A stretch of 19,685 bases of DNA, from IMG/VR virus record IMGVR_UViG_2695420380_000016; one strand, 5' to 3'. Below the pieces are notes generated by a model that was given only the letters and a program-made list of their open reading frames with translations, was not told where the DNA came from and ran no database searches. The position numbers and the translations under genes were made by a program. Position 1 is the first letter of the stretch. Every line of letters starts with the position of its first letter. The DNA is from a virus. Taxonomy: Duplodnaviria; Heunggongvirae; Uroviricota; Caudoviricetes. Positions 2,694 to 19,685 of this stretch are shown piece by piece.

Positions 2694-3446
2694 TTATCTC
2701 GTCACCTTTCTCAATTGTGCTTCAGCGTAAGATTCCTCCTGCCAGCACTTTGTAACCAGTTTATCAATGACATTTGCATATCCTTTATACCACTGATAAT
2801 CACTCAGGTCTGGTACCAGCTTCTGGACATGATGCCGCGCCAGTGTGGTTGGTAAACGACTAAACCGTTTTCCATTGCAACGCCCACAAATCTTATAAAC
2901 AGGTGTGCCATGAAGCCGGGTCCTTTTTTCATCCAGGACAATACCTTTACCCTTACACCCTCTGCACGCTGTGCTGACTTCTCCCTTACCATGGCAATGC
3001 TGACATAGTTCCTTCACCCACTCTTCTTTGATAACAGATTCCCCGCTTCTGGAGTGTTTCACCACTTCGAGCAATACATTATGAAATCCAGTACCAGCAC
3101 AATGCTCACAACGAGCCTTACTTGCCGCAGACCTGGAATAATCAGCAAAGGCAAAATTCACAAGGTAAGGAATAATCTGTAGCCGGGTTTCTTCACTCAA
3201 TTTATTCAATGTCGGGTTATCCAGTGCCATCGCGTAATTGAGCAGACCTTCAATCGCAAACTGAGGATCCTGAACACCAACTTTTGCCAGGAATAAGGCA
3301 AACCCAAGCGGTGCTTTCGACTGCACCATCCCCTGCGCAGCCATCACATCCGTAATCGTTAAACCACCAGAGCCTGTCGCCGGTGCGTCATCACTCAATT
3401 TTGGAGATTTTGGGGAGTAATATTTTGGTAAGGCTTCAAGGTTCAT
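2694..3446 (-). CDS. late-gene antitermination protein Q (phage 82 / QuuQ type)
   Basis: 250 aa with Cys/His clusters (CEHCAGTG, CQHCHGKGEVSTACRGCKGKG, CGRCNGKR). Sits between the DUF968 gene and the promoter-terminator module. Size matches remembered Qin QuuQ. SD GGAG upstream. Confidence 0.75.
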   Translation of the reverse strand: MNLEALPKYYSPKSPKLSDDAPATGSGGLTITDVMAAQGMVQSKAPLGFALFLAKVGVQDPQFAIEGLLNYAMALDNPTLNKLSEETRLQIIPYLVNFAFADYSRSAASKARCEHCAGTGFHNVLLEVVKHSRSGESVIKEEWVKELCQHCHGKGEVSTACRGCKGKGIVLDEKRTRLHGTPVYKICGRCNGKRFSRLPTTLARHHVQKLVPDLSDYQWYKGYANVIDKLVTKCWQEESYAEAQLRKVTR

Positions 3447-3459
3447 GCTCGTTCTCCAC

Positions 3460-4455
3460 TTACGCCAGTACGCCTATTGCCAGCGCACGATCGATAAAAC
3501 GAAATATCAGCTCCAGCTGGGAGCCATACTTCTCTTCAAATGCCACGGTATCCGCATGCAGCTCGTCGTGATGCTTTCTGCACAAAGGCAACACAAAAAG
3601 GTCATGCGCTTTTGTTCCCATTCCACCCTGACCGTGACCTATCAGGTGGTGGGGATCATCAGCGGGCTTTCCACAACATGCACACGGCTGTGTCTTAACC
3701 CAGCGCGTGTACTTTTCATTAACCCAGCGGCGACGTTTTGGGCGTAACATAAAAGACTCCGGCGACTCCGGATCCACTTTCAGCGCCAGCACCTTTTTCG
3801 CCTTATCCTGGATGATGCTGGTGGCAGGAACCGAAGGCACAAGGTCACTTTCCCGGGTGACAGACGGCACAACAGGCTTCGGTAATCTCAGTGCCTTACG
3901 GGCTGCACTTTCCGGTAAGGCATCCGCCAGGTCATTACGAATCAGCCACCAGCACAGTTCCGGCATTGTCACAACGTGACTGTCATCAAAACCGAGATCC
4001 CGACGCACAACAGACAACACCCAGCGGGCACAGTTATCCGTTGCCATTGATTCCAGCCGTTCCGTGAACTGATCGCGCAGCTGGTTATCGCAGTGCCAGC
4101 ACAGACGGATTGCACCCGGAGCGTGTCGCATTGTGGTCATGTTCTCGCTGTGCCAGTCGGAATGAGGCCTCTGGCAGCCTTTTTCACGAAGTAACCAGCT
4201 TTCAAGACATTCCACGCCACCAGCACGACGGATCACTGCCTCATTGCGGAACACGGCCCGAACGGCAGGATCATCCGCCAGCGGTTGTGATGCCGCCGGA
4301 ACGGCACCACTCGCGAAAGATGAATAACGCTCCGGCTCAGGCTCCAGCAGGACACGCCCCTGCATAAACAGGGGCATCAGCTCTGAACCTGGCCTGAACA
4401 ATACGATCCCCATACGCGGGGCAATTTCAGGGGTCAGTAGCGCTCTCACGGTCAC
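3460..4455 (-). CDS. DUF968-family protein (YdfU-like), Cys/His-rich C-terminus
   Basis: 331 aa. C-terminal block CACCGKPADDPHHLIGHGQGGMGTKAHDLFVLPLCRKHHDELH. Immediately upstream of Q, as YdfU is in Qin. Starts with GTG at 4455 directly after the upstream stop; true start uncertain. Confidence 0.65.
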   Translation of the reverse strand: MTVRALLTPEIAPRMGIVLFRPGSELMPLFMQGRVLLEPEPERYSSFASGAVPAASQPLADDPAVRAVFRNEAVIRRAGGVECLESWLLREKGCQRPHSDWHSENMTTMRHAPGAIRLCWHCDNQLRDQFTERLESMATDNCARWVLSVVRRDLGFDDSHVVTMPELCWWLIRNDLADALPESAARKALRLPKPVVPSVTRESDLVPSVPATSIIQDKAKKVLALKVDPESPESFMLRPKRRRWVNEKYTRWVKTQPCACCGKPADDPHHLIGHGQGGMGTKAHDLFVLPLCRKHHDELHADTVAFEEKYGSQLELIFRFIDRALAIGVLA

Positions 4456-4456
4456 C

Positions 4457-5266
4457 TCAATGAACGGTATCGAGCAGCTTTAACAGCTCAGGGAATCGGG
4501 ATTCGAAGAAATGCGGCTGCGTCTCGCGCGGATTTGCGGGACTGGTGATGTTCTTGCCGAACATGCAACCTTTCGCTGTCAGCGACCAGAATTTTTTGAT
4601 GTTGTTAATCGCGGTACGGCTGTATCGTTCGCGCTGCTCGACGATCCCCAGTTTCACCATCTGGTGATATGCCTGATTAGCCGTCAGGCGTATACCATAC
4701 TGTTTCAGCAGTGCGCTCAGTGACAGTGTCGGGCGACTTGAGCCATCGTGTGCATCAGCAGGAGCATCAATGGCATAGCGCGGTGCCAGATTCGGTAAGC
4801 CAACAGCCTCCTGGAGTTTCTGACAGGCACCAAGCACTGAAGAGTTAGACAGGTTTAACTCCCGGCGCATAAAGTCCAGCAGGATCACGCCAGCCTGCAT
4901 CTTGTCAGCAGCCTGTCCGGATAATTTTTCCGGTGCGCTGGTTACCATATCGAAAGTACGGATCACCTTCAGATGGAATGACGGGCTGATCCACATTGCA
5001 TAGGCATACACCAGTTCCTTGCAGACATACGTTCCCCGTTCATTTCCCCCATGAATCACACTCACCGGGTCAACACCCAAATTCTGGGTGTTGGTCAATT
5101 CATGAACAAGCTCAACAGTTTGTTGGCTGGAAAGAAACTTTCCCGGCTCCTTGGTTCTGGCATTTGCACCAGATGCTACTGCTGCGCGATGCAGATCGTT
5201 CAGGCTGTAACGCCCATAAGCATCACGACGAACTTCAATACCATCAATGACCATCAGATTATTCAT
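4457..5266 (-). CDS. KilA-N domain protein
   Basis: N-terminus IEVRRDAYGRYSLNDLHRAA...GGNERGTYVCKELVYAYAMWISPSFHLKVIRTFD matches the KilA-N DNA-binding fold pattern. Strong SD GAGGAG 10 nt upstream of the ATG at 5266. Confidence 0.75.
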   Translation of the reverse strand: MNNLMVIDGIEVRRDAYGRYSLNDLHRAAVASGANARTKEPGKFLSSQQTVELVHELTNTQNLGVDPVSVIHGGNERGTYVCKELVYAYAMWISPSFHLKVIRTFDMVTSAPEKLSGQAADKMQAGVILLDFMRRELNLSNSSVLGACQKLQEAVGLPNLAPRYAIDAPADAHDGSSRPTLSLSALLKQYGIRLTANQAYHQMVKLGIVEQRERYSRTAINNIKKFWSLTAKGCMFGKNITSPANPRETQPHFFESRFPELLKLLDTVH

Positions 5267-5285: not shown

Positions 5286-5675
5286 TCAGGCGGCTGCACC
5301 CGCCGTTTTCTCGTACTTACTGATAGTGATCTCGACCTTCCCTTCCGGGATAACCGGTCCCCACTCCACCAGCATTCTTTTCACCTGACTGTCGTCCTCC
5401 CACACACCCGCGTGGGTCAGGGCGTCAAACAGCGCCTTGTTATAGTTGTCCAGATCGCGGATCCGGTTATCCGGAGGAAACAACACGATCTCCACTGAAG
5501 CAGGTGCCGACGTTGGTTTTGGCAGACGACGTAACTGCTCAACTATTGCTGCACACGCCGCGCTCTGGAATTTTCGCCCCGCCGCGCTTATCAGGCTCTT
5601 ACCTGCAAACGCCCCTTTGTTGGGGTGTCGCCAGTACGTGTTCACGCTGGGCGGAAAAGGCAGGATCAGCTTCAT
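5286..5675 (-). CDS. rusA: RusA-family Holliday junction resolvase
   Basis: 129 aa; LPFPPSVNTYWRH...RDLDNYNKALFDALTHAGVWEDDSQV matches the RusA pattern including the catalytic Asp cluster. Start overlaps the upstream stop as ATGA. Confidence 0.85.
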   Translation of the reverse strand: MKLILPFPPSVNTYWRHPNKGAFAGKSLISAAGRKFQSAACAAIVEQLRRLPKPTSAPASVEIVLFPPDNRIRDLDNYNKALFDALTHAGVWEDDSQVKRMLVEWGPVIPEGKVEITISKYEKTAGAAA

Positions 5676-5998
5676 GCTTTCAGGCCTCTCTCATGTAACC
5701 AGTGGGTTGCACGCAGCCTTGCGTTTTCCTCACCGGCAAGCAGTGAGCGGATAATCCCGACCGCCTCGCTGTCGTCGTCCTTCACCGCGGTATGAAGCGT
5801 TATCCCCCGGGCCACGCCACGCTTTATCGTGATGACGCCTTTTTTCTCCAGTGCGCGAAGATGCTCCACTGCTGCATTCACTGAACGGTATCCCAGCATG
5901 GTTGCCACCTCCTGATTGGTTGGCGGGAAGCCACGTTCTTTCTGGTAAGAAATCAGCATATCCAGCACCTGCTGCTGGCATTGAGTTAATGTCGTCAT
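5672..5998 (-). CDS. LexA N-terminal DNA-binding-domain protein (no peptidase domain)
   Basis: MTTLTQCQQQVLDMLISYQKERGFPPTNQEVATMLGYRSVNAAVEHLRALEKKGVITIKRGVARGITL aligns by eye with E. coli LexA residues 1-70 (LTARQQEVFDLI...[42 protein letters not shown]). The 108-aa product has no Ala-Gly/S24 module. ATGA overlap with the upstream gene. Confidence 0.75.
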   Translation of the reverse strand: MTTLTQCQQQVLDMLISYQKERGFPPTNQEVATMLGYRSVNAAVEHLRALEKKGVITIKRGVARGITLHTAVKDDDSEAVGIIRSLLAGEENARLRATHWLHERGLKA

Positions 5999-6648
5999 GC
6001 CGCCATCTCCCTGACCAGTTTTTCCGCCTGCTGGCGAACCTGCACCAGAAAGGCCTCACCACATGCCTCAAGTTCATCGCGCCCGATGTAGCTGATTGCC
6101 GGTCCCTTCCAGGTCTTGTCGAAAACAGCAATAGCACCAGCGAAGAAAGCGCCTGTCGGCACCTGCTTCTCGTCCTTCGGGATAAACCAGGCTGGCAGTT
6201 CAAAACCAATACGCCCGCGAATAAAAGCAATATGGTCTGCATCTTCCGGCCACCACACTTCGCTGGTGGCAGCTTTGATCAGGAAAACATAGCGCCCGCC
6301 TTTATCACGCATAGCACTGGCATGTTTCATGATGTAACGCATGCCGGTGATGTATTGCCCCTCATGCTGACTGGCGCGACTGTACGGGGGATTACCAAAG
6401 GCAGCACCTTTAAGCTCCGCAAGACGTTCTGACCAGTCATGCGCCAGCGCGTTGTCTTCCGCAGTGTAATAAGCGGCACATTTGGCGTTATCACCATCAG
6501 TAAACAGATCCAGAACAAACGGGCCAAACAGGGTGTTAATTCCCCAGAAAATGTTGTCCGGCGTGCGCCACTGATCGCCCACTTCCTTCAGTTCATGGGC
6601 TGGTTTGTTCCGCAGCTCCACCAGCGCCTGGCAATATTTATTACTCAT
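5995..6648 (-). CDS. phage Dam-type DNA N6-adenine methyltransferase
   Basis: Contains GNPPY, the (D/N)PPY motif IV of N6-adenine methyltransferases. Start placed at MSNKY (6648), which overlaps the upstream stop as TAATG; the track's upstream Met at 6681 would overlap the preceding gene by 34 nt. Confidence 0.75.
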   Translation of the reverse strand: MSNKYCQALVELRNKPAHELKEVGDQWRTPDNIFWGINTLFGPFVLDLFTDGDNAKCAAYYTAEDNALAHDWSERLAELKGAAFGNPPYSRASQHEGQYITGMRYIMKHASAMRDKGGRYVFLIKAATSEVWWPEDADHIAFIRGRIGFELPAWFIPKDEKQVPTGAFFAGAIAVFDKTWKGPAISYIGRDELEACGEAFLVQVRQQAEKLVREMAA

Positions 6649-7139
6649 TAAGCCCCCACGTAATTCCCTGACAGATACCACTCTTCACCCGATGCAGCGC
6701 GCTTGCTGCTTTTCCGTAAGCACCGCTCACGATGCGCCAGAAAATTGTTTCGTTCTGGCTGGGAGTGGCTTTCACGGAATGCCGCCATCCACACCGTTGC
6801 AGCACGACGGTATAAGCCCCTGGACTCCAGTTCTTCCGCCTGGCGGGTCAACAAAATCACCCGGGGATCGTTAGTGCCGACATAGAAATTGCGCACAGGT
6901 CTGGTTTCACGAACTGGTTGTGGTTCCGGCTCCTGCGCTCTCTCAGTCAGGCGCGGGAAATGTCTGCGTGTATCTACTTCACAACGGTGAGCCACACGCC
7001 CGCTCTGACGTAACTTGCTTGCTGACTGTAGAACGCGCTGCCGTGAGTAACCTGCAAAAGCATCCGCAATGTCTCCGGAAGTACACCCCGGATGGGCTTC
7101 AATGAATTTCTGAACGTCATTCAAAAGACTCATGCTCAC
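6648..7139 (-). CDS. hypothetical protein; C-terminal half weakly resembles PerC/ANR-type regulators
   Basis: 163-aa ORF, translationally coupled on both sides. Motif LLTRQAEELESRGLYRRAATVWMAAF is the basis for the tentative PerC/ANR resemblance. Occupies the slot where a helicase loader would sit in lambda. Confidence 0.5.
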   Translation of the reverse strand: MSMSLLNDVQKFIEAHPGCTSGDIADAFAGYSRQRVLQSASKLRQSGRVAHRCEVDTRRHFPRLTERAQEPEPQPVRETRPVRNFYVGTNDPRVILLTRQAEELESRGLYRRAATVWMAAFRESHSQPERNNFLAHRERCLRKSSKRAASGEEWYLSGNYVGA

Positions 7140-8077
7140 CCCCTGAATCCTGCCGGGATCTGGCTGTAGTCCACATTGTCGTAACTGGCTTTGAAGTACG
7201 GGTCTTCGCGTTTTTCTGTGTACGTGCTGATGGACGGCGATAAGCGCAGGGAAAGCTCATCCCATTTTTCCCGCAGCTTCGACGGGCTGAGCACGTTACG
7301 GCACCAGAACGGATCGCGGCTGATGCGGCTGTACATCTCGCAGATTTGTTTGTGAGTACGACCATCCTGCACACACATCAGGCGAATTTCGTTTGCCCAG
7401 GCTGTCCAGTTCGGTTCTTTGGGACGAACCACCTCGCCGTCACATTCGGCGGCCTGCTCGTACAGGGCGATGATTTTTTTCCAGAGCCACTGTGCGCAGG
7501 TCAAATCATCCTGCGTTCCCCACTGGCACTTTTTAGGGCTGAATACAACCGCATCAGGATGGCGAGTTAAAAAATCCTGTTCAGCCGTCTGCGTGTCCGG
7601 TTGCGAAACGTCCGGACGAGAAGGTTTTTTATCTGACGGATCATATTTTGATTTTACTGACGGATCCCCGCCAGATTCTGACGGGTGAAAACCCGCTTTT
7701 TTGCCAGATTTCGACGCATCAAATTTTGACGGGTCAGATTTTGATGCGTCAGATTTTGACGGGTCAGAATCTGACAGTTGAGAAAATGCCGCGGCCTGAA
7801 GCTTCGCAACGTTAAGCTGATAAACATTCGACGCATTACGGTTACCCTGGCGACGCGCCTTACGCGTTAACCAGCCTTCTGCTTCCAGCCGTGCAATAGC
7901 CGTTCTGACGGTACTCATCCCCGCGCCAATCTGGCGGGCAATGGTTTCAATCGATGGCCAGCACACACCTTCGTCATTACTGAAATCAGCCAGGCGGGCC
8001 ATAATTGCCACACTGGATAATTTCATGCCTGACGCTGCGCAACCATCCCATACATAGCCGGTTAATTTAGTGCTCAT
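7136..8077 (-). CDS. replication initiator / replisome organiser, O-like (N-terminal winged HTH, repeat linker, C-terminal domain)
   Basis: 313 aa. N-terminus has an HTH (SIETIARQIGAGMSTVRTAIARLEAEGWLTRK). The central linker SDSDPSKSDASKSDPSKFDASKSG is encoded by direct DNA repeats, as in lambda O where ori iterons lie inside the gene. SD AGAGG upstream of the ATG at 8077. Confidence 0.65.
   Translation of the reverse strand: MSTKLTGYVWDGCAASGMKLSSVAIMARLADFSNDEGVCWPSIETIARQIGAGMSTVRTAIARLEAEGWLTRKARRQGNRNASNVYQLNVAKLQAAAFSQLSDSDPSKSDASKSDPSKFDASKSGKKAGFHPSESGGDPSVKSKYDPSDKKPSRPDVSQPDTQTAEQDFLTRHPDAVVFSPKKCQWGTQDDLTCAQWLWKKIIALYEQAAECDGEVVRPKEPNWTAWANEIRLMCVQDGRTHKQICEMYSRISRDPFWCRNVLSPSKLREKWDELSLRLSPSISTYTEKREDPYFKASYDNVDYSQIPAGFRG
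7630..7780. repeat. iteron-like direct repeats (candidate ori) inside the O-like gene
   Basis: About eight imperfect copies of a TGACGG(A/G)TC core (ctgacggatc, actgacggatc, tctgacgggtg, ttcgacgcatc, tttgacgggtc, ttgatgcgtc, tttgacgggtc, tctgacag). The last four are spaced 15 bp apart. AT-rich stretches flank them. Confidence 0.5.
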
Positions 8078-8425: not shown

Positions 8426-9036
8426 GCGTTAGTTTCTCCACAACCAGAAGCAATCGACGCCACGACGCCCGGAGCTGCACACTCGCGGGCGTCATTACTT
8501 TCTGAAACGCAAAAAATTTTGTAGACAAGTGCTGCATGCTCCTGCAGCTTCGAAATTGAGAGGTACAGCTCGTCGTTAATTGCTGTCTTCTCATGCGGTT
8601 CCACTACACCGTCTTCGATTGCCGAACGAATCTGTTTTGAATAACTGCCGATCTGTTCAATGACTTCCAGTAAACGCTGGTTAATATCGGCATTGTCCAC
8701 ATCCTCGACGTCAGGAAGAGACACAAAGACGCCATTTGCAGACTGCGCCACAGCGTCAGCAATGAAGTGAGTGCCACCAGCACGTTGTAAAATCATTGCC
8801 CATCCCAGCGGGAAAATCTGATCGCCATCGGCACGAAGGCGGTTAAATAATGCGTTCTCTGTTACATCCAGCCAGTCAGCTGCTTCAGCGTAACCACCCG
8901 GCAACGCTGCGATAGTTTTTCTGACAGCTTTCACGTACCACTCAGGCTGTTTTTCTACTTTCCAGTGATACTTACCCACGGTTAGCCTCATCGTTCTGTG
9001 GTTTCTGTTAATCGATTTATCCATTAGATTTTTCAT
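8422..9036 (-). CDS. CII-like / CP76-type phage regulatory protein (start uncertain)
   Basis: Positioned immediately after the cro-like gene. Length and position fit lambdoid CII-like/CP76 regulators. Track ORF extends to 9093, overlapping cro by 76 nt; internal Met codons at 9036 and 9024 are more plausible starts. None has a clear SD. Confidence 0.5.
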
Positions 9037-9217
9037 AAAGCTCAGGTTTAAATGGCAACCGTCCGCAAGTTCTATATGCTGCTTCTGCTGCACGTCCTTT
9101 TGGAATTAACTGGCCCGGACGGTTTCGCCACTGATAAACGGCCTCAGTTGTTATGCCGAAAAAAGCAGCAACTTTCTCAATACTGCCGAAGTAGCTTTCG
9201 ATATCGTCAGTTGTCAT
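9017..9217 (-). CDS. Cro-like repressor, DicC type
   Basis: 66 aa: ...[56 protein letters not shown] resembles remembered DicC (YFGS..KLAQAAGI....Y.W......P.GRA). Divergent from the repressor gene. SD GGAGGG upstream. Confidence 0.7.
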   Translation of the reverse strand: MTTDDIESYFGSIEKVAAFFGITTEAVYQWRNRPGQLIPKGRAAEAAYRTCGRLPFKPELYEKSNG

Positions 9218-9315
9218 ACGCCCTCCAAAACTAAGTTTTATTAGATGTTAATTATCAATCTATCTTAGGTCAATAAAAACTAAGATTACTTAGTAATTTA
9301 AGAAATGGTGCTCCT
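9218..9315. promoter_or_regulatory. immunity-region operator/promoter (OR-like; divergent cro-like and cI promoters)
   Basis: 98-bp AT-rich divergent intergenic region. Contains palindrome AAAAC-TAA-GTTTT (9227-9239) and inverted repeat CTAAG-ATTA-CTTAG (9279-9292). Candidate cro promoter on the minus strand: TTGACC-N17-TAACAT. Confidence 0.6.
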
Positions 9316-9942
9316 ATGGAAACGGTTGGTCAGCGTATAAAAGCTCTGAGAAGGGTTACCAGAACGTCCCAGAAAGAATTGGGTAAATTTTGTGGGGTAA
9401 GTGACGTTGCTGTGGGGTACTGGGAAAAAGACATCAATGTCCCTGGCGGGGAAGCACTTTCGAAATTAGCGAAGTTCTTTAATACGTCAATAGATTACAT
9501 TCTTTATGGTGCTGAGTTTGAAGGCAAACTAGTCACAAACATGCGCAGAGTTCCTGTAATTTCGTGGGTTCAGGCTGGGCAGTTTACTGAGTGCAGGGCA
9601 GCAGAAGTGTTTAGTGAAGTGGACAAGTGGGTAGATACATCTTTAAAGATTGGTGATAACTCATTTGCATTAGAAGTTAAAGGCGACTCCATGACTAATC
9701 CTAATGGCCTCCCAACAATACCAGAAGGTGCAACAGTGATTGTAGATCCTGATGCAGAACCTCGTCATGGAAAAATAGTCATTGCTCGACTTGATGGAAC
9801 GAACGAAGCTACAGTAAAAAAATTAGTCATCGATGGTCCTCAAAAGTTTTTAGTGCCATTAAATCCACGGTATCCCAACATCCCAATCAATGGTAATTGC
9901 CTGATCATTGGTGTAGTCAAAGGAGTTCAATACGAACTCTAG
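9316..9942 (+). CDS. CI-type prophage repressor (HTH_XRE N-terminus, S24 LexA-like peptidase C-terminus)
   Basis: 208 aa. N-terminal HTH (QKELGKFCGVSDVAVGYWEKD). Ala-Gly autocleavage site (VQAGQF). Catalytic Ser in GDSM and Lys in TVKKLV, as in lambda CI and LexA. Confidence 0.9.
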   Translation: METVGQRIKALRRVTRTSQKELGKFCGVSDVAVGYWEKDINVPGGEALSKLAKFFNTSIDYILYGAEFEGKLVTNMRRVPVISWVQAGQFTECRAAEVFSEVDKWVDTSLKIGDNSFALEVKGDSMTNPNGLPTIPEGATVIVDPDAEPRHGKIVIARLDGTNEATVKKLVIDGPQKFLVPLNPRYPNIPINGNCLIIGVVKGVQYEL

Positions 9943-12451: not shown

Positions 12452-12545
12452 ATGGAAACGTAATTAACTCAATAATCGCCGGATGGTGAGGGTTTCCTTT
12501 TACCCGAATTCAGCGCGGTGCAGCGCATATAACGTGGAGAACAAA

Positions 12546-13082
12546 ATGTCATTTATTAAAACTTTTTCCGGGAAGCATTTTTATTATGACAGGATAAATA
12601 AAGACAACATCGATATTAACGATATCGCGGTTTCCCTTTCAAATATCTGTCGCTTTGCTGGTCATCTTTCACACTTCTACAGCGTTGCCCAACATGCGGT
12701 GCTTTGCAGCCAGCTGGTACCGGAGGAGTTTGCTTTTGAAGCGTTAATGCATGATGCAACAGAAGCGTATTGCCAGGACATCCCCGCACCACTGAAACGC
12801 CTTCTTCCTGACTATAAACGGATGGAAGAAAAAATAGATGCCGTAATCCGTGAGAAATACGGGTTACCCCCAGTTATGAGTACGCCCGTGAAATATGCCG
12901 ATCTTATCATGCTGGCAACCGAACGCCGCGATCTCGGGCTTGATGATGGCTCTTTCTGGCCTGTACTGGAAGGCATCCCGGCAACAGAGATGTTCAACGT
13001 GATTCCACTGGCACCTGGCCATGCCTACGGGATGTTTATGGAACGTTTTAACGAGTTATCGGAGTTACGCAAATGCGCATGA
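12546..13082 (+). CDS. HD-domain phosphohydrolase, YfdR-like (5'-deoxynucleotidase family)
   Basis: 178 aa from the ATG at 12546, preceded by GGAGA. His...His-Asp signature (HLSHFYSVAQHAV...ALMHDATEAY). Track ORF start at 12483 lacks an RBS. Confidence 0.75.
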   Translation: MSFIKTFSGKHFYYDRINKDNIDINDIAVSLSNICRFAGHLSHFYSVAQHAVLCSQLVPEEFAFEALMHDATEAYCQDIPAPLKRLLPDYKRMEEKIDAVIREKYGLPPVMSTPVKYADLIMLATERRDLGLDDGSFWPVLEGIPATEMFNVIPLAPGHAYGMFMERFNELSELRKCA

Positions 13083-14451: not shown

Positions 14452-17400
14452 TCACACGCTGCGCCTTCGAGAATATTCATTTAATCGCTGATAACGAACA
14501 TCTTGCTCCAGTTGTGGAGCAGCTTGAACAATTTGAAGCAAGCATTGCCCCAACTCTCGAGGCCCCCAGTGTTGTTCGGCAATCACGGCATTCAGCAGGG
14601 ATAGAGCGTCCGCAGGATATCGGCTGCAAATATCTGATTCTAGCAAAAGGCGAACGTCGTAGCTAAGGTGTTCGAGCGGTTGCAGCCAGTCCTGCACCAC
14701 TGCCAAAGCCGCCGGAAATTCACCTCGGGCAGCAATCACCATACGAGTCAACGATTCGGATATGCGTGGGGTGGCCAAGTTGCGGGACTTTGGCCAAACC
14801 TGTTGCCAAAATGGCTGGACACGATTTTTCCAATACTCCTCGCGCTGATCGCCCGCACCTTCAAGTGCCTGGTATAACGCCTGCGCGGCTACCTCCAGAC
14901 CTTCTTGTGGAAGAGCACTAATTGCCGTTCGGAACTCCTCCACGGTATATCCCTCGGTAGGGCCCAGAGCTGCATAAGTCAGGAAAGTAGCGAATTGCTG
15001 CCGGTGCTCGCCAAGATCAGAATAGTGATTGGCGCTCTCCAAAAAATCTGACTTGAAAGCTATCAGCAACGGTTCATACAGGCGTGGCGACCAGAGGAAG
15101 CCTTCCCACACAGCTTTTGCTTCGACGGGATTACTCCAAGCAAACAAGGGCAATAGATACTGTTCGGTCCAAGGTCGATCTACGCGAAAAAATGCGATCA
15201 GCCGCGACCCCAGCAACACCCGACCATGGCGGAATAGCTCTATCTGTACATTACACAATTTGGTGAAAAGTGTTTTCAATTCAACAGGAAGCAAATCATT
15301 GTCATTCGGGTTCTGTTTGAACCATAGGGTGATCAGTGATTGCGTGACATGCCCAATGGGATGATTGATCGCCGTAGAAACAGGATCATAGGTCTCAATT
15401 CCGTTTCGAATGGTGCTAGACTCTGGGCTTGTTTCTATCATCAGAACCCGACGACAAAGGGCCAGTAGAATCTCCTCGTGGCAGAGGATGGTCTTCGAAG
15501 CCTCCTCCATCCACCAAGTGACAGCGTGGGAAATCTCCTGAAGTACTGCGTCAGGCATGTCAAGCACCAACGGTGCGGCGTACCGCCACGAACGCAAAAT
15601 CATCCCTGGTTCAGCCCAAGTCTGCAGAGCTTCACGCCACCGACCAACAGGCCACACATCATCTTGTGATAGTTTACTTAACGCATACAGACTGTGAAAA
15701 AAGCGCGTACGGCAAACATCACTCCAAGTGTCCTCATAGAAAGGCAGTCTTTCTGGCATAGGCTTTGCGAGCCATTGCACTAATTCCTGCCACTTACGGG
15801 GCGCAATGTCGACATCTATACTCTCCTCGAAGCCTGGATCACCGGTTCCGCTCATCCAGTGAGAGAATTCATCACGCTCGTTGGTTGCCAGTTGCCATTT
15901 TGGGTATGCTGTGGATATTTCCGTCAAACGTGTAGCCGCAGACTCTCCCAAAACAAGGCCCGCTCCCCTGAGCTTCGCTAGACACAACCAGACGGAATGA
16001 GCCACCAAATAATGCCACCTGTCTGCTTCCAAATTATCCTCGTACATCTCGCGCGGAGGCCCTGCCAAGATAGCAGTTTCCAGACGCTCTTGTGCAATTC
16101 CTGTCAGATGTCGTCCCTGCAAAACAAACAGTCTGAATACCTCTCGCCTAGTATCCGTGGCCCACAACCACCATGAACCGTCCTCTAACAACCAATTAAC
16201 CCACCGCTCAGGTGGTATGCAGTTGTCTTGGCTTGCGGCAAACAGTGCCAGACGTTTGAAGGTGGGATATGGCAACTCAAACCAATTCTGAGCAATGCGC
16301 GTGGCCTGATCGCTGTCTTTGGATCGAACGGCTAACCATGAATCCCGAAGTAATTCAATCAGGCTCACCCAATCGCGGAACCCCCGGTTCTGCCAGTGCG
16401 GAGTGATGGACGGCAAATCCCAATGCGAGCGGTCGTGACGATCGTCGGACTCTCCCAACTCCCGCAACAAGTCCAGTGCATCACGCAACAACTGCTGAAA
16501 ATCTTCCAACAGGTATGGCAAGGACGATTTCCATGACTCGTCAGCAAGGTCGAACAGGGTTGAACGTACGTAATCAGCAGTCAGCACCAGCTCCCAATCC
16601 ACCAATTGCTTGATTCGCAAGGGTTCATCAGTGCTGCTCGAATCGTCTTCACTATAGCGAAACGGCCGCCTCAACATAACCTTGGGAGAAAGCAACTCGC
16701 GTAACTCCAAGCGCAATGTAGTCGTCAAGCCTTCATTCTTTAAGCGGTTTTGCCAACGATACAAATCCAGGTTCTGCAATGGCGATTTCACACGACCACT
16801 AAGCAGAAGCCGCCATAAAGTAGACATAGGTGGACCAGGAATAGCCAGGGGGGAATGCAAGAGAATTTCATCTAACTCAGAAGTCTTACGCTCCCGCATC
16901 AGTGCTGCTAAGCGATCTAGTTCGCTCTCAATCAGAAACATCCAACGGTCGTGTATTTGTCCGCCGCGTTCAGCAATCCATATGATCAACCTAGGGTCGC
17001 CCAGATAACGAACTAGCCAACGGGCTATATGGGACATTACGTCATCCCATTTGCTAGCACTGACACATCCAGAAACCAGCGACATCTGCGGGGCCAGCTC
17101 ATAGGGCGCAGGACGCTGAACCAGACTGAATCGGAGTTTCGGGTCAATTTCGACATGCGGAGATACACAAAAGCGTGGCAGATCGCTGTATTTAAATCGT
17201 TCGTCCGAGAAAGCTTTCAATAACCAATCCAGCGGCGGTGCAGGATTGAGTTCCGCAAAGCGTTTTGCTGGTAAACCTGATTTATCTGACAAGGCCCACA
17301 ACATCCGACCAACGAAATCGTCCTGACGAGTGCTGTCCTGCGGGCGGGCCAGAGCATGTTTGACGACTATAGCCTCTTTGCCCTGTATACCATCTCGATA

Positions 17401-18279
17401 AGTATCTGCCCAAGCGTGCAACGTTTGATGCAGCACTGAATGATCAGTGGAGCCCGCCGGTACGGTGTAAAGGATAGGAGTGACCCCTTTGGCCTCCCAC
17501 TCGATGGCTTTCCGGTGCTCCTGCCCCGGCTCACACTCCCCCAGTGCCCATACTTGTGGTGTGACTTCACCGAGCCTCCGATCTGCTGCAAGCGCATCCA
17601 TCATGTAGCGCAGTACCGGGTCGTTGATGCTGTAGCCAACGAAGCAGACCACATAGTTACGAAATAACTCACTCACAAAGCGAGCTGCCCAACGCTCAGT
17701 GAGATAAGCCAAGCCAAAGTCACCGCTGGTAACAACCAGACGATTCAGGGCAGTATCATCCGCCTTTTCCGGTAACAGCCCATGCAGGTATACAAGTCCA
17801 TCCCAGCGGCTGTTTTTTGGAATTGGCAGCATCGGCGCTACATAGGCCTGAAAAGCCTGGCCTGTACGTTTAGCTGCCACATGAAAGAGACGGTCAAAGT
17901 TGGTAGTGACCAATCGAAGGGCACCCTCGCGGCTACGGGCTAAACGTAACAGCGCCGCCTGAGTATCAATAGCGCCCCTACGACGGAGCTTTGGCTTAAG
18001 GGCTTTTTCCAACGCGCGTCGGACGGCTATACGCTGCCCTGGTAAGCGCCGTTCCAGCAAATCTAATGTGCCGTCAAATTGCCCACGCTCGAAAACCTCA
18101 CGCTCAATTTCTGAAAGTGTTGTTCCGTTCCTCTGGTAAATTAGTTCTACCAACCCTTTGAAACCAGGTAAACCAGCAGGGTAGGAAATGCCTGCTCCAC
18201 AGAAGAACACAACGCGCCCTTCCTCGTGCGCCTGCAAAAGCTCATCAGGAATATCAGGGCCGTTGGTAATGAATTGCAT
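14452..18279 (-). CDS. SIR2-like domain fused to a large helical C-terminal domain (1275 aa); candidate DSR-like antiphage NADase
   Basis: N-terminus carries SIR2_2-type motifs in order: VVFFCGAGISYPAGLPGFKGL (glycine-rich NAD loop), VTTNFDRLFH (catalytic Asn), VYLHGLL (catalytic His about 40 residues later), FVGYSINDPVL. The remaining 950 or so residues are helical and Trp/Leu-rich with no Walker A motif. Strong RBS GGAGGAAAAGGA before the ATG at 18279. Candidate -10 TATAAT on the minus strand at 18342-18347. Confidence 0.8.
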   Translation of the reverse strand: MQFITNGPDIPDELLQAHEEGRVVFFCGAGISYPAGLPGFKGLVELIYQRNGTTLSEIEREVFERGQFDGTLDLLERRLPGQRIAVRRALEKALKPKLRRRGAIDTQAALLRLARSREGALRLVTTNFDRLFHVAAKRTGQAFQAYVAPMLPIPKNSRWDGLVYLHGLLPEKADDTALNRLVVTSGDFGLAYLTERWAARFVSELFRNYVVCFVGYSINDPVLRYMMDALAADRRLGEVTPQVWALGECEPGQEHRKAIEWEAKGVTPILYTVPAGSTDHSVLHQTLHAWADTYRDGIQGKEAIVVKHALARPQDSTRQDDFVGRMLWALSDKSGLPAKRFAELNPAPPLDWLLKAFSDERFKYSDLPRFCVSPHVEIDPKLRFSLVQRPAPYELAPQMSLVSGCVSASKWDDVMSHIARWLVRYLGDPRLIIWIAERGGQIHDRWMFLIESELDRLAALMRERKTSELDEILLHSPLAIPGPPMSTLWRLLLSGRVKSPLQNLDLYRWQNRLKNEGLTTTLRLELRELLSPKVMLRRPFRYSEDDSSSTDEPLRIKQLVDWELVLTADYVRSTLFDLADESWKSSLPYLLEDFQQLLRDALDLLRELGESDDRHDRSHWDLPSITPHWQNRGFRDWVSLIELLRDSWLAVRSKDSDQATRIAQNWFELPYPTFKRLALFAASQDNCIPPERWVNWLLEDGSWWLWATDTRREVFRLFVLQGRHLTGIAQERLETAILAGPPREMYEDNLEADRWHYLVAHSVWLCLAKLRGAGLVLGESAATRLTEISTAYPKWQLATNERDEFSHWMSGTGDPGFEESIDVDIAPRKWQELVQWLAKPMPERLPFYEDTWSDVCRTRFFHSLYALSKLSQDDVWPVGRWREALQTWAEPGMILRSWRYAAPLVLDMPDAVLQEISHAVTWWMEEASKTILCHEEILLALCRRVLMIETSPESSTIRNGIETYDPVSTAINHPIGHVTQSLITLWFKQNPNDNDLLPVELKTLFTKLCNVQIELFRHGRVLLGSRLIAFFRVDRPWTEQYLLPLFAWSNPVEAKAVWEGFLWSPRLYEPLLIAFKSDFLESANHYSDLGEHRQQFATFLTYAALGPTEGYTVEEFRTAISALPQEGLEVAAQALYQALEGAGDQREEYWKNRVQPFWQQVWPKSRNLATPRISESLTRMVIAARGEFPAALAVVQDWLQPLEHLSYDVRLLLESDICSRYPADALSLLNAVIAEQHWGPRELGQCLLQIVQAAPQLEQDVRYQRLNEYSRRRSV

Positions 18280-18461: not shown

Positions 18462-19685
18462 TCATTTCGAGCCTGAACGAGTACAAGTAACAATCGATTC
18501 AACTCTCTCCCACCATGCCTGGTAGGCTTTACGCTGTTCTTCTAGATAATCACTCTTGTCATAAACTTGCCATACACCTGGCAGTTTATGACCGAGCATT
18601 ATTTCAGCAATATGAGGCGCAGTAAGATCAGAAAAGTTTGTTCGTGCTGTTCGTCTCAAATCATGAAGAGACCAATGAGGAAATTGATACCCCAAACGCC
18701 GCCATGCGTACTGCATTAAATTGTAAGGCAGCGACTGCAATGATGTCCGACCAACTGGTTCCCTGCTTCCTTCCTTAGTAAAAAGCATATCGGAACCGTT
18801 GTTCATAGAGATAACGTATTTTATAAGCTCTTCAACCGGTTCAATAATGGGCCGCTTTAGCGGTTCGCCTGTTATATCCCCTGTCTTATGTCGTTCTGGT
18901 GGTACAGTCCATATTTTATTAATGAAATCAAAATCGTCCACCTTGGCAGTAATTAGCTCTGAACTACGGCAACCAAAATGCAGCAATAGTTTAATGAAGG
19001 CCCGGTATTTAGGAACCATTCGAGAACCATCGATCGCAGCATAAAGGATTTTAATTTCATCATGTGTCAGAAACCGTTTCTTCTGACCTTTACGGATATC
19101 CATATCTTTACCCGTGATATCCGACAGCGGGCGAGTTTCAATGAGCTTTCTCTTATACGCCCAGACATGGGCCTGCTTTGCGTTAATTAGCAATCGGTCT
19201 GCTATTGCTGGAGTCTTAGTGCTAAGAGGCTCCAGGACTTCTAACCAATCATGCAATGTAGCTGCATCGTGAGGGATATTCCCGATTTTAGAGAACAGGT
19301 GCAGCTCAAACGAGCGGAGTATCTGTTCAGAACCTTTTTTATTTTTTACACAATATGCTTCATACCAAGCACGGATCACAGATTCTACCGTCATGGCTTC
19401 AGTAGCTTTACGTTTTTCTGCCAGCTTGACCAATCGTGGATTGCGGTTTGACTCGAGTTCACCACGAAGACGGATAACTTCTTCTCTGGCCTCTTTTAGT
19501 CCAGTTGCCGGGTAAGTTCCGATATCAAGACGCTCACCTTTCCCCGCCCACTGATAACGATATTGGAACACTACGCGACCTTTCGGTGATACTCTAACAG
19601 ACAGACCATCACGATCGGATTTAACCAAAACCTTATCACGTTCCTTTCCAACAACTGAACGCAACCACGCATCAGACAGCGCCAT
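18462..19685 (-). CDS. tyrosine integrase, P4-like (DUF4102 arm-binding N-terminus plus catalytic domain)
   Basis: 407 aa. N-terminus MALSDAWLRSVVGKERDKVLVKSDRDGLSVRVSPKGRVVFQYRYQWAGKGERLDIGTYP fits the P4-family arm-binding pattern. C-terminus has catalytic-domain motifs (HDLRRTARTN..., GHKLPGVWQVYD with the Tyr). The ATG is the last three bases of the window, so upstream signals and att are outside. Confidence 0.85.
   Translation of the reverse strand: MALSDAWLRSVVGKERDKVLVKSDRDGLSVRVSPKGRVVFQYRYQWAGKGERLDIGTYPATGLKEAREEVIRLRGELESNRNPRLVKLAEKRKATEAMTVESVIRAWYEAYCVKNKKGSEQILRSFELHLFSKIGNIPHDAATLHDWLEVLEPLSTKTPAIADRLLINAKQAHVWAYKRKLIETRPLSDITGKDMDIRKGQKKRFLTHDEIKILYAAIDGSRMVPKYRAFIKLLLHFGCRSSELITAKVDDFDFINKIWTVPPERHKTGDITGEPLKRPIIEPVEELIKYVISMNNGSDMLFTKEGSREPVGRTSLQSLPYNLMQYAWRRLGYQFPHWSLHDLRRTARTNFSDLTAPHIAEIMLGHKLPGVWQVYDKSDYLEEQRKAYQAWWERVESIVTCTRSGSK

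Follow-up and report, generated by a model that had tools for sequence, protein, structure and literature searches.

LexN, a LexA-type DNA-binding domain without the S24 peptidase domain, encoded in the nin region of lambdoid prophages

Introduction

LexA dimerises through its C-terminal S24 domain (PMC8565304), and in Escherichia coli it reads DNA with helix 3 of its N-terminal domain, where Ser39, Asn41, Ala42, Glu44 and Glu45 are the DNA-contacting residues (PMC3091678). The only characterised truncated phage homologue of LexA that we found is gp6 of the Bacillus phage GIL01. It binds a palindrome of its own at the late promoter P3 and activates it, and host LexA together with gp7 acts as a repressor (PMC6182141). 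A precedent of a different kind is lambda NinH, a mimic of the host protein Fis that is encoded in the nin region, immediately downstream of the resolvase gene rap/ninG (PMC7166090). Here we describe a 327-nt gene in a 19,685-nt stretch of Caudoviricetes DNA (IMG/VR record IMGVR_UViG_2695420380_000016; "the window" in the following), which is the early region of an E. coli lambdoid prophage. We label the gene and its product LexN.

LexN resembles gp6 in being a phage-encoded LexA DNA-binding domain, the product of an early gene, and insensitive to RecA-mediated cleavage. Gp6 consists of 66 residues and has no tail, whereas LexN carries an extra 38-residue tail. Gp6 stems from a Bacillus-type LexA and binds GaCACA..TGTGaC, whereas LexN is closest to gammaproteobacterial LexA; and the function of gp6 was shown experimentally, whereas LexN is known here from its sequence and a structural model. 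BLASTP returned no alignment between the two proteins, and the best PHROG for gp6 is 3502 (E 1.8e-21) and not 362, the family of LexN. They look like independent captures of the LexA N-terminal domain, one in enterobacterial lambdoid phages and one in a Bacillus tectivirus. The likeness to NinH is organisational only. Both proteins are small nin-region copies of the binding part of a global host DNA-binding protein and both are encoded beside a resolvase gene, but the models are Fis in one case and LexA in the other, the folds differ, and NinH lies downstream of the resolvase gene whereas LexN lies upstream.

We tentatively propose that LexN is a RecA-insensitive, LexA-type surrogate repressor, which would bind CTGT-type operators, dimerise by its tail and be made from the delayed-early transcript. 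An initial annotation of the window had suggested that a non-cleavable LexA-domain protein could occupy SOS boxes or phage operators and uncouple some genes from RecA-mediated induction, which is a reasonable interpretation of the gene. LexN itself is not a discovery, since it is already annotated in thousands of genomes.

Results and discussion

LexN is a LexA winged helix without the peptidase domain

The gene runs on the minus strand from an ATG start codon at 5998-5996 to a TGA stop codon at 5674-5672. The initial annotation had given the extent of the open reading frame (ORF) exactly, stop codon included, and had left the strand unstated. Pfam assigns residues 1-65 to PF01726 (LexA_DNA_bind) over profile positions 1-65 of 65, with an expectation value (E) of 2.9e-19 and 69 bits, against a gathering score of 23.7. 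The best solved relative in a phmmer search of the PDB is the N-terminal domain of E. coli LexA (1lea, E 6.9e-16), which aligns without gaps, residues 2-69 on 2-69. In an AlphaFold2 (AF2) model computed from 13 family sequences (mean predicted local distance difference test score, pLDDT, 77.6), the N-terminal domain has predicted helices at residues 6-22, 28-35 and 40-52 and a two-stranded wing at 56-58 and 66-68, followed by a low-confidence linker at residues 71-76. Foldseek places the model on the LexA-DNA complex 3jso_B with a root-mean-square deviation of 0.9 Å over 67 columns at 51% identity. All Foldseek matches at E ≤ 0.001 are LexA structures, and no other winged-helix family appears among them, so that the assignment of residues 1-70 to the LexA winged helix-turn-helix, first made by eye, is borne out by profile, sequence and structural alignment. 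The wing motif K53-G54 ... R64-G65-I66 is the same as in E. coli LexA. A net charge of +4 over residues 1-70 is found in both LexN and LexA, and on this ground we rejected the idea that extra positive charge compensates for the lost dimerisation domain.

The rest of LexN is unlike E. coli LexA, and so is its setting, a prophage early operon in place of autoregulation at an SOS box in the chromosome. Pfam finds no Peptidase_S24 domain in the protein, which ends at residue 108 and has neither the peptidase and dimerisation domain nor the catalytic Ser119 and Lys156. The cutoff of the NCBIfam lexA equivalog TIGR00498 is not reached (70.8 versus 110.95), with only profile positions 1-91 of 203 aligned. 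The window allele does contain an Ala-Gly pair, A88-G89, in the segment LLAGEE, which HMMER aligns to A84-G85 of LexA (VAAGEP). The pair is not conserved: close orthologues have Lys or Asn instead of G89, distant family members do not share the segment, and AF2 predicts it to be helical and not an extended strand or loop. Judged from these comparisons, a functional cleavage site is absent from LexN despite A88-G89. The initial annotation had stated that both the Ala-Gly site and the S24 domain are missing; this is correct for the domain, literally incorrect for the dipeptide and functionally right for the site. Its description of the protein as non-cleavable also stands, since without the RecA-responsive S24 peptidase domain LexN cannot be inactivated by self-cleavage. 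Because it has neither the S24 domain nor the cleavage site and stays below the equivalog cutoff, LexN is not a LexA in the family sense. Membership of a defence system was considered and rejected; PADLOC gave just a marginal match to a CARF-linked helix-turn-helix protein (E 3.6e-4).

The recognition helix and the C-terminal tail

LexN keeps four of the five LexA contact residues, namely S39 (just before the helix), N41, A42 and E45, and has Val in place of E44. This pattern would fit a LexA-like CTGT-type half-site for the window allele. S39 is the same in all of 121 family sequences, N41 in nearly all, and A42 is usually kept.

Behind the linker, the model predicts two helices, at residues 74-87 and 93-103, which are absent from LexA. 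They recur in family members of 38-50% identity, with A97 and L101 invariant and the hydrophobic pattern kept. As it is shared across the family and absent from LexA, this tail defines the family, and its conservation down to 38% identity is a new observation. We infer that the tail is a dimerisation element that replaces the lost S24 domain.

LexN is a widespread family with constant neighbours

A HMMER search of 1.84 billion representatives gave 4582 matches at E ≤ 0.001, most of them genuine LexA proteins aligned over LexN residues 1-70 only. The tail-bearing relatives are proteins of 106-165 residues and 38-52% identity, in which the match extends to residue ~100-106 (P0124, P0126, P0128, P0130, P0138, P0162, P0168, P0219, P0242). 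Several proteins of 140-350 residues contain two LexA_DNA_bind domains in tandem (P0131, P0132, P0149, P0152, P0153, P0155, P0156 and others).

Of 5426 complete E. coli genomes, 2223 contain the LexN gene at ≥80% coverage and 2233 (~41%) have a match of any kind; the median is one copy per genome and the maximum four. It also occurs in 51 phage records, including mEp460, converting phages of Shiga toxin (Stx) types Stx2a and Stx2c, and Shigella phages. The labels given to it vary: "LexA family transcriptional regulator" or "LexA family protein" by PGAP, "LexA DNA binding domain protein" in mEp460 and "repressor, lexA family" in the Stx phages. A RefSeq example is WP_039720272.1. The protein of the window is identical to mEp460_046, whose record likens the gene to the hypothetical protein NP_599074.1; the accessions next to the latter are those of phage SfV. 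For Stx phages, a catalogue of gene families includes a "LexA family transcriptional regulator" with pfam01726 only (pham 237), present in 15 phages (PMC8136144). In the full-text literature we found just such catalogue entries and no functional study of the lambdoid LexN family.

The match of LexN to PHROG 362 ("transcriptional repressor") is full-length (E 1.5e-59), with residues 1-107 aligned to profile positions 1-105 of 106. It belongs to this family by the full-length match, which includes the tail, and by its place in the nin region upstream of rusA, DUF968 and Q. The divergent clades represented by loci L018 and L110 also match PHROG 362 over the full length. The label of the family is an annotation by homology, and its "repressor" is to be read as a predicted function. 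The coding sequence is under purifying selection. Four synonymous and no nonsynonymous differences separate LexN from the mEp460 gene, and in comparison with a Citrobacter orthologue 63.5 of 79.3 synonymous versus 48.5 of 238.7 nonsynonymous sites differ.

The gene neighbourhood was compared in 128 related loci from viral contigs and assemblies, in which ORFs were labelled by homology to the window proteins. Every clade has LexN, in the loci sampled, within a lambdoid nin region, with a RusA-family resolvase downstream and then DUF968 and Q; DUF968 is found together with LexN in almost every locus of every clade examined. In one clade RusA is too divergent for phmmer, and there Pfam recognised it in a single locus only (L098; PF05866, E 1.4e-11). 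Methyltransferase, PerC and KilA-N genes are optional neighbours, and the Citrobacter loci have no Dam-type methylase, so that PerC directly adjoins LexN. The invariant partners of LexN are thus RusA and DUF968/Q, which is a new observation. The constant synteny may reflect function or the shared descent of one mosaic module. In one clade the LexN residue-45 alleles (Glu/Ala) are linked to sequence variants of DUF968. When covariation of residue 45 with palindromes was considered as a candidate signal in 78 loci of one clade, this linkage was all that emerged, and the candidate was dropped.

LexN is a delayed-early gene

Several E. coli chromosomes carry, between yjjG and prfC, DNA that is 99.3% identical to the window over 93% of its length. 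The gene order in Table 1 was derived from the ORF list, Pfam and the RefSeq annotation of a near-identical prophage; the delayed-early genes are on the minus strand. The pR-like promoter lies ~3.3 kb upstream of LexN. The genes from cro to the Dam-type methyltransferase upstream and from rusA to Q downstream run in the same direction as LexN, which shares an ATGA overlap with each of its two neighbours; this agrees with its earlier description as embedded in the early operon. LexN is a nin-region, delayed-early gene. Between positions 2400 and 9400 no internal promoter stands out better than chance (5 promoter-like sites versus 6.3 expected). The pR-like promoter, if it functions as its consensus match suggests, probably gives rise to the delayed-early transcript on which LexN is encoded. 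Since LexN has no evident promoter of its own and is coupled to its neighbours in the pR operon, it would be silent in the lysogen and expressed within minutes of induction or infection.

Table 1 Features of the window, and SOS boxes in or at the start of genes of related carriers
Feature	Position	Strand	Basis
Integrase	18462-19685		
Dsr1 gene, 1275 aa, annotated anti-phage defence sirtuin, between integrase and early-left operon	14452-18279	-	
yfdP-S early-left genes	after Dsr1 in gene order		
S24-type cI repressor	9316-9942	+	
pR-like promoter TTGACC-17-TAACAT, upstream of cro, between divergent cI and cro	9245..9273	-	consensus scan only, 9/12 matches
cro	9017-9217	-	
ymfL, then DUF4222	between cro and O-like gene in gene order		
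O-like replication gene	7136-8077	-	
PerC/YfdN, putative transcriptional activator, two genes upstream of LexN	6648-7139	-	
Phage N6-adenine Dam-type methyltransferase, immediately upstream of LexN	5995..6648	-	Pfam Dam E 1.1e-45
ATGA overlap, stop of Dam-type gene and start of LexN	5995..5998	-	sequence
LexN, LexA-N-terminal-domain protein, PHROG 362	5672..5998	-	ORF and translation, 108 aa
LexA-type winged helix-turn-helix, codons 1-68	5795..5998	-	AF2 model, Foldseek 3jso_B, phmmer 1lea
Recognition helix VNAAVEHLRALEK, codons 40-52	5843..5881	-	alignment to E. coli LexA
Two-helix C-terminal tail, codons 74-103	5690..5779	-	AF2 model, pLDDT ~80 in both helices
ATGA overlap, stop of LexN and start of rusA	5672..5675	-	sequence
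rusA, Holliday-junction resolvase, immediately downstream of LexN	5286..5675	-	
KilA-N gene	4457-5266	-	
DUF968/HNH-motif gene	3460..4455	-	Pfam DUF968 E 3.6e-81
Late-gene antiterminator Q, marks the end of the nin region	2694..3446	-	Pfam Antiterm E 2.4e-53
SOS boxes in repressor/methylase genes, mEp460 (L002)	12522-12541, 3471-3490		
SOS boxes in repressor/methylase genes, 1720a-02 (L189)	39531-39550, 31556-31575		
SOS box in repressor/methylase genes, 569R4 (L188)	12739-12758		

An SOS-box-controlled operon in one clade and SOS boxes in carriers

SOS boxes were scored with an approximate matrix made from 20 E. coli boxes; these training boxes score 13-27 bits. A LexN clade of ~41% identity in prophages of Klebsiella, Enterobacter and Buttiauxella (loci L098-L124 and L131) has an SOS box of ≥15 bits within ~1.6 kb upstream of LexN in 27 of its 28 loci, with 19 distinct box sequences. 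In one representative (L110, 5210-6330), the order is a terminator, a TTGACC/TATACT promoter with the SOS box TACTGTTTATTTATACAGTA overlapping its -10 element, a DinI-family gene (PF06183, E 8.1e-22), a conserved 101-residue ORF, LexN, a 67-residue ORF, DUF968 and Q. Another locus (L098, 5500-6010) has the same terminator, promoter and box, then an 82-residue ORF and LexN, and no dinI. A dinI-like gene was detected in 18 loci of the clade. In this clade LexN is very probably an SOS-induced gene, grouped in most loci with dinI, another modulator of the SOS response. Such an SOS-box-controlled operon with LexN and mostly dinI is a new observation. It is a hint of an SOS-related role for LexN and holds no evidence that LexN binds the box. 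As the promoter with the SOS box reads through as far as DUF968 and Q, SOS induction may act directly on a part of the nin region in this clade, Q included.

Strong boxes occur elsewhere in carriers of LexN. The near-identical prophage in NZ_CP104371.1 has two adjacent SOS boxes of 19.5 and 22.7 bits in front of a dinI-like gene at its far (prfC) end, outside the window (L133, 30479-30526). The related carriers mEp460, 569R4 and 1720a-02 have strong boxes in front of dinI-like genes, within the repressor gene, and where a methylase gene begins downstream of Q. A score of 25.8 bits is reached within the coding sequence of the S24-type repressor of mEp460 and 1720a-02, and scores of 22-24 bits at the beginning of the DNA methylase gene, which is located between Q and the lysis genes. 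Several unrelated LexN clades also have the box downstream of Q.

Possible function of LexN

According to our proposal, LexN would derive from a gammaproteobacterial LexA that kept the winged helix and the main base-contact residues and lost the S24 domain, and the tail would let it dimerise. Once made from the pR delayed-early operon in the minutes after induction or infection, LexN would be blind to activated RecA (RecA*) and would, for this reason, stay bound while host LexA is destroyed. It would occupy CTGT-containing operators, both the SOS boxes of the host and phage moron promoters under LexA control, for example that of the dinI-like gene of this prophage, and would re-impose repression there during lytic growth. 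Binding of LexN to SOS-type operators is plausible, given its contact residues. The farther-reaching version is that RecA-proof LexN re-occupies SOS operators after cleavage of host LexA and shuts down host SOS functions as well as the LexA-controlled anti-repressor, dinI and bacteriocin modules of co-resident elements, by which the phage would gain control of the damage response; this version we regard as rather unlikely.

If it is true, LexN would be a widespread unrecognised SOS modulator, in view of its frequency in complete E. coli genomes, and its position behind an SOS box in the Klebsiella/Enterobacter clade, mostly with dinI, would make a self-limiting pulse circuit. LexN is among the commonest accessory prophage genes in E. 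coli and is present in Stx phages, whose induction is SOS-dependent. Uncleavable binding to SOS operators would alter SOS kinetics, mutagenesis, toxin-phage induction and prophage competition in a large share of strains. The value of LexN lies in its being a very common and easily testable candidate SOS modulator.

A number of observations weigh against this proposal. No SOS box was found in the 19.7-kb window, where the best site scores 11.1 bits, below every training box, and none of ≥14 bits was found in the complete genome of the carrier phage PhiR29_1, by which the notion that carrier phages always have SOS boxes is ruled out; that the matrix is an approximate one is a further reservation. 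CTGT/ACAG inverted repeats are not enriched in the window at spacings of 0-20 in either orientation, and CTGT-N8-ACAG with up to one mismatch occurs 10 times versus 7.1 expected. An SOS box upstream of LexN is present in 0 of 100 loci of the other clades, so the arrangement described above is confined to one clade. Among the 121 family sequences residue 44 is never Glu, and residue 45, Glu in most, is replaced in sizeable sub-clades by Ala, Leu, Ser, Gly, Asp, Thr or Ile; in the sub-clade with the strongest nearby SOS boxes it is Leu. Such variation would fit some drift of specificity within the family. A tail-mediated dimer may have a geometry of its own, and the spacing of its half-sites need not equal that of the SOS box. 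Since the window and PhiR29_1 are without an SOS box, a canonical target in cis is not required, and it follows that, if LexN binds SOS boxes, those of the host must count.

Several of these points would be explained if LexN were a phage-specific regulator that has drifted like gp6 to an operator of its own and binds one or a few phage sites to activate or repress, for example, Q or a late or moron promoter. The precedent of gp6, a truncated LexA homologue that recognises a non-LexA palindrome and activates a late promoter, is in favour of such a regulator and against a surrogate LexA. The base contacts at positions 42, 44 and 45 differ from clade to clade on a fixed scaffold, the lack of canonical SOS boxes in the window and PhiR29_1 is as expected, and clades of 38-50% identity all have the same synteny with RusA, DUF968 and Q. 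However, neither the window nor the LexN-to-Q module of nine divergent loci yielded a repeated or conserved palindrome, the nin genes are packed and overlapping with no obvious internal promoter, late transcription is already governed by Q, and the window allele keeps S39, N41, A42 and E45. We consider a private operator doubtful, and it would make LexN one more phage-specific regulator, mainly of interest to phage biology. The same synteny could point to an architectural or recombination accessory, a mimic of a host protein that works with the adjacent resolvase, by analogy with NinH, itself a nin-region mimic of a host DNA-binding protein beside a resolvase (PMC7166090). LexN lies directly upstream of the RusA-family gene, or one small ORF away, in the sampled loci of every clade and is translationally coupled to rusA in the window. 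Yet a conserved order of genes could stem from the common ancestry of one mosaic module, the LexA winged helix is a sequence-specific reader of the major groove and not a known bending or junction-binding fold, and no evidence of an interaction between LexN and RusA was found, which makes such an accessory role improbable.

Two further explanations can largely be set aside. The initial annotation had raised the possibility of a dominant-negative dimer partner, and LexN could likewise be imagined to titrate host LexA or form mixed dimers with it. LexA dimerises via its S24 domain (PMC8565304), which LexN does not have, its own two-helix tail standing in that place, and the suggestion is not upheld. 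A related idea is that the LLAGEE segment makes LexN a pseudo-substrate of S24 proteases. The alignment of A88-G89 to the LexA cleavage site speaks for it, but the lack of conservation of G89 and the helix predicted for the segment led us to reject the pseudo-substrate role; we regard either form of interference as very improbable. Equally improbable is that LexN is a captured lexA that has lost its function and is decaying. For this speak its origin as a shortened host gene and the many frameshifted or fused fragments present in databases. Against decay stand the conserved length and tail in clades of 38-50% identity, the purifying selection, the presence in 41% of complete E. coli genomes and in viable phages, and the translational coupling to both neighbours. 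The tentative reading of LexN as a RecA-insensitive surrogate repressor is the one that we retain.

Observations on neighbouring genes

The rusA gene is intact in the window and is annotated as a pseudogene, with an internal stop codon, in the 99.3%-identical prophage of strain 2021CK-01784 (L001, 6161-6556). An HNH-like motif (HNHc_6, E 4.3e-06) is present at the C terminus of the DUF968 protein. PerC homologues in prophages of enterohaemorrhagic E. coli are known virulence regulators. The KilA-N protein weakly matches the PADLOC candidate defence family PDC-S22 (E 1.7e-05, 37 residues). The 250-residue Q protein contains a DnaJ-type CXXCXGXG zinc-finger repeat before its Antiterm domain (PF00684, E 3.5e-07, under the gathering score).

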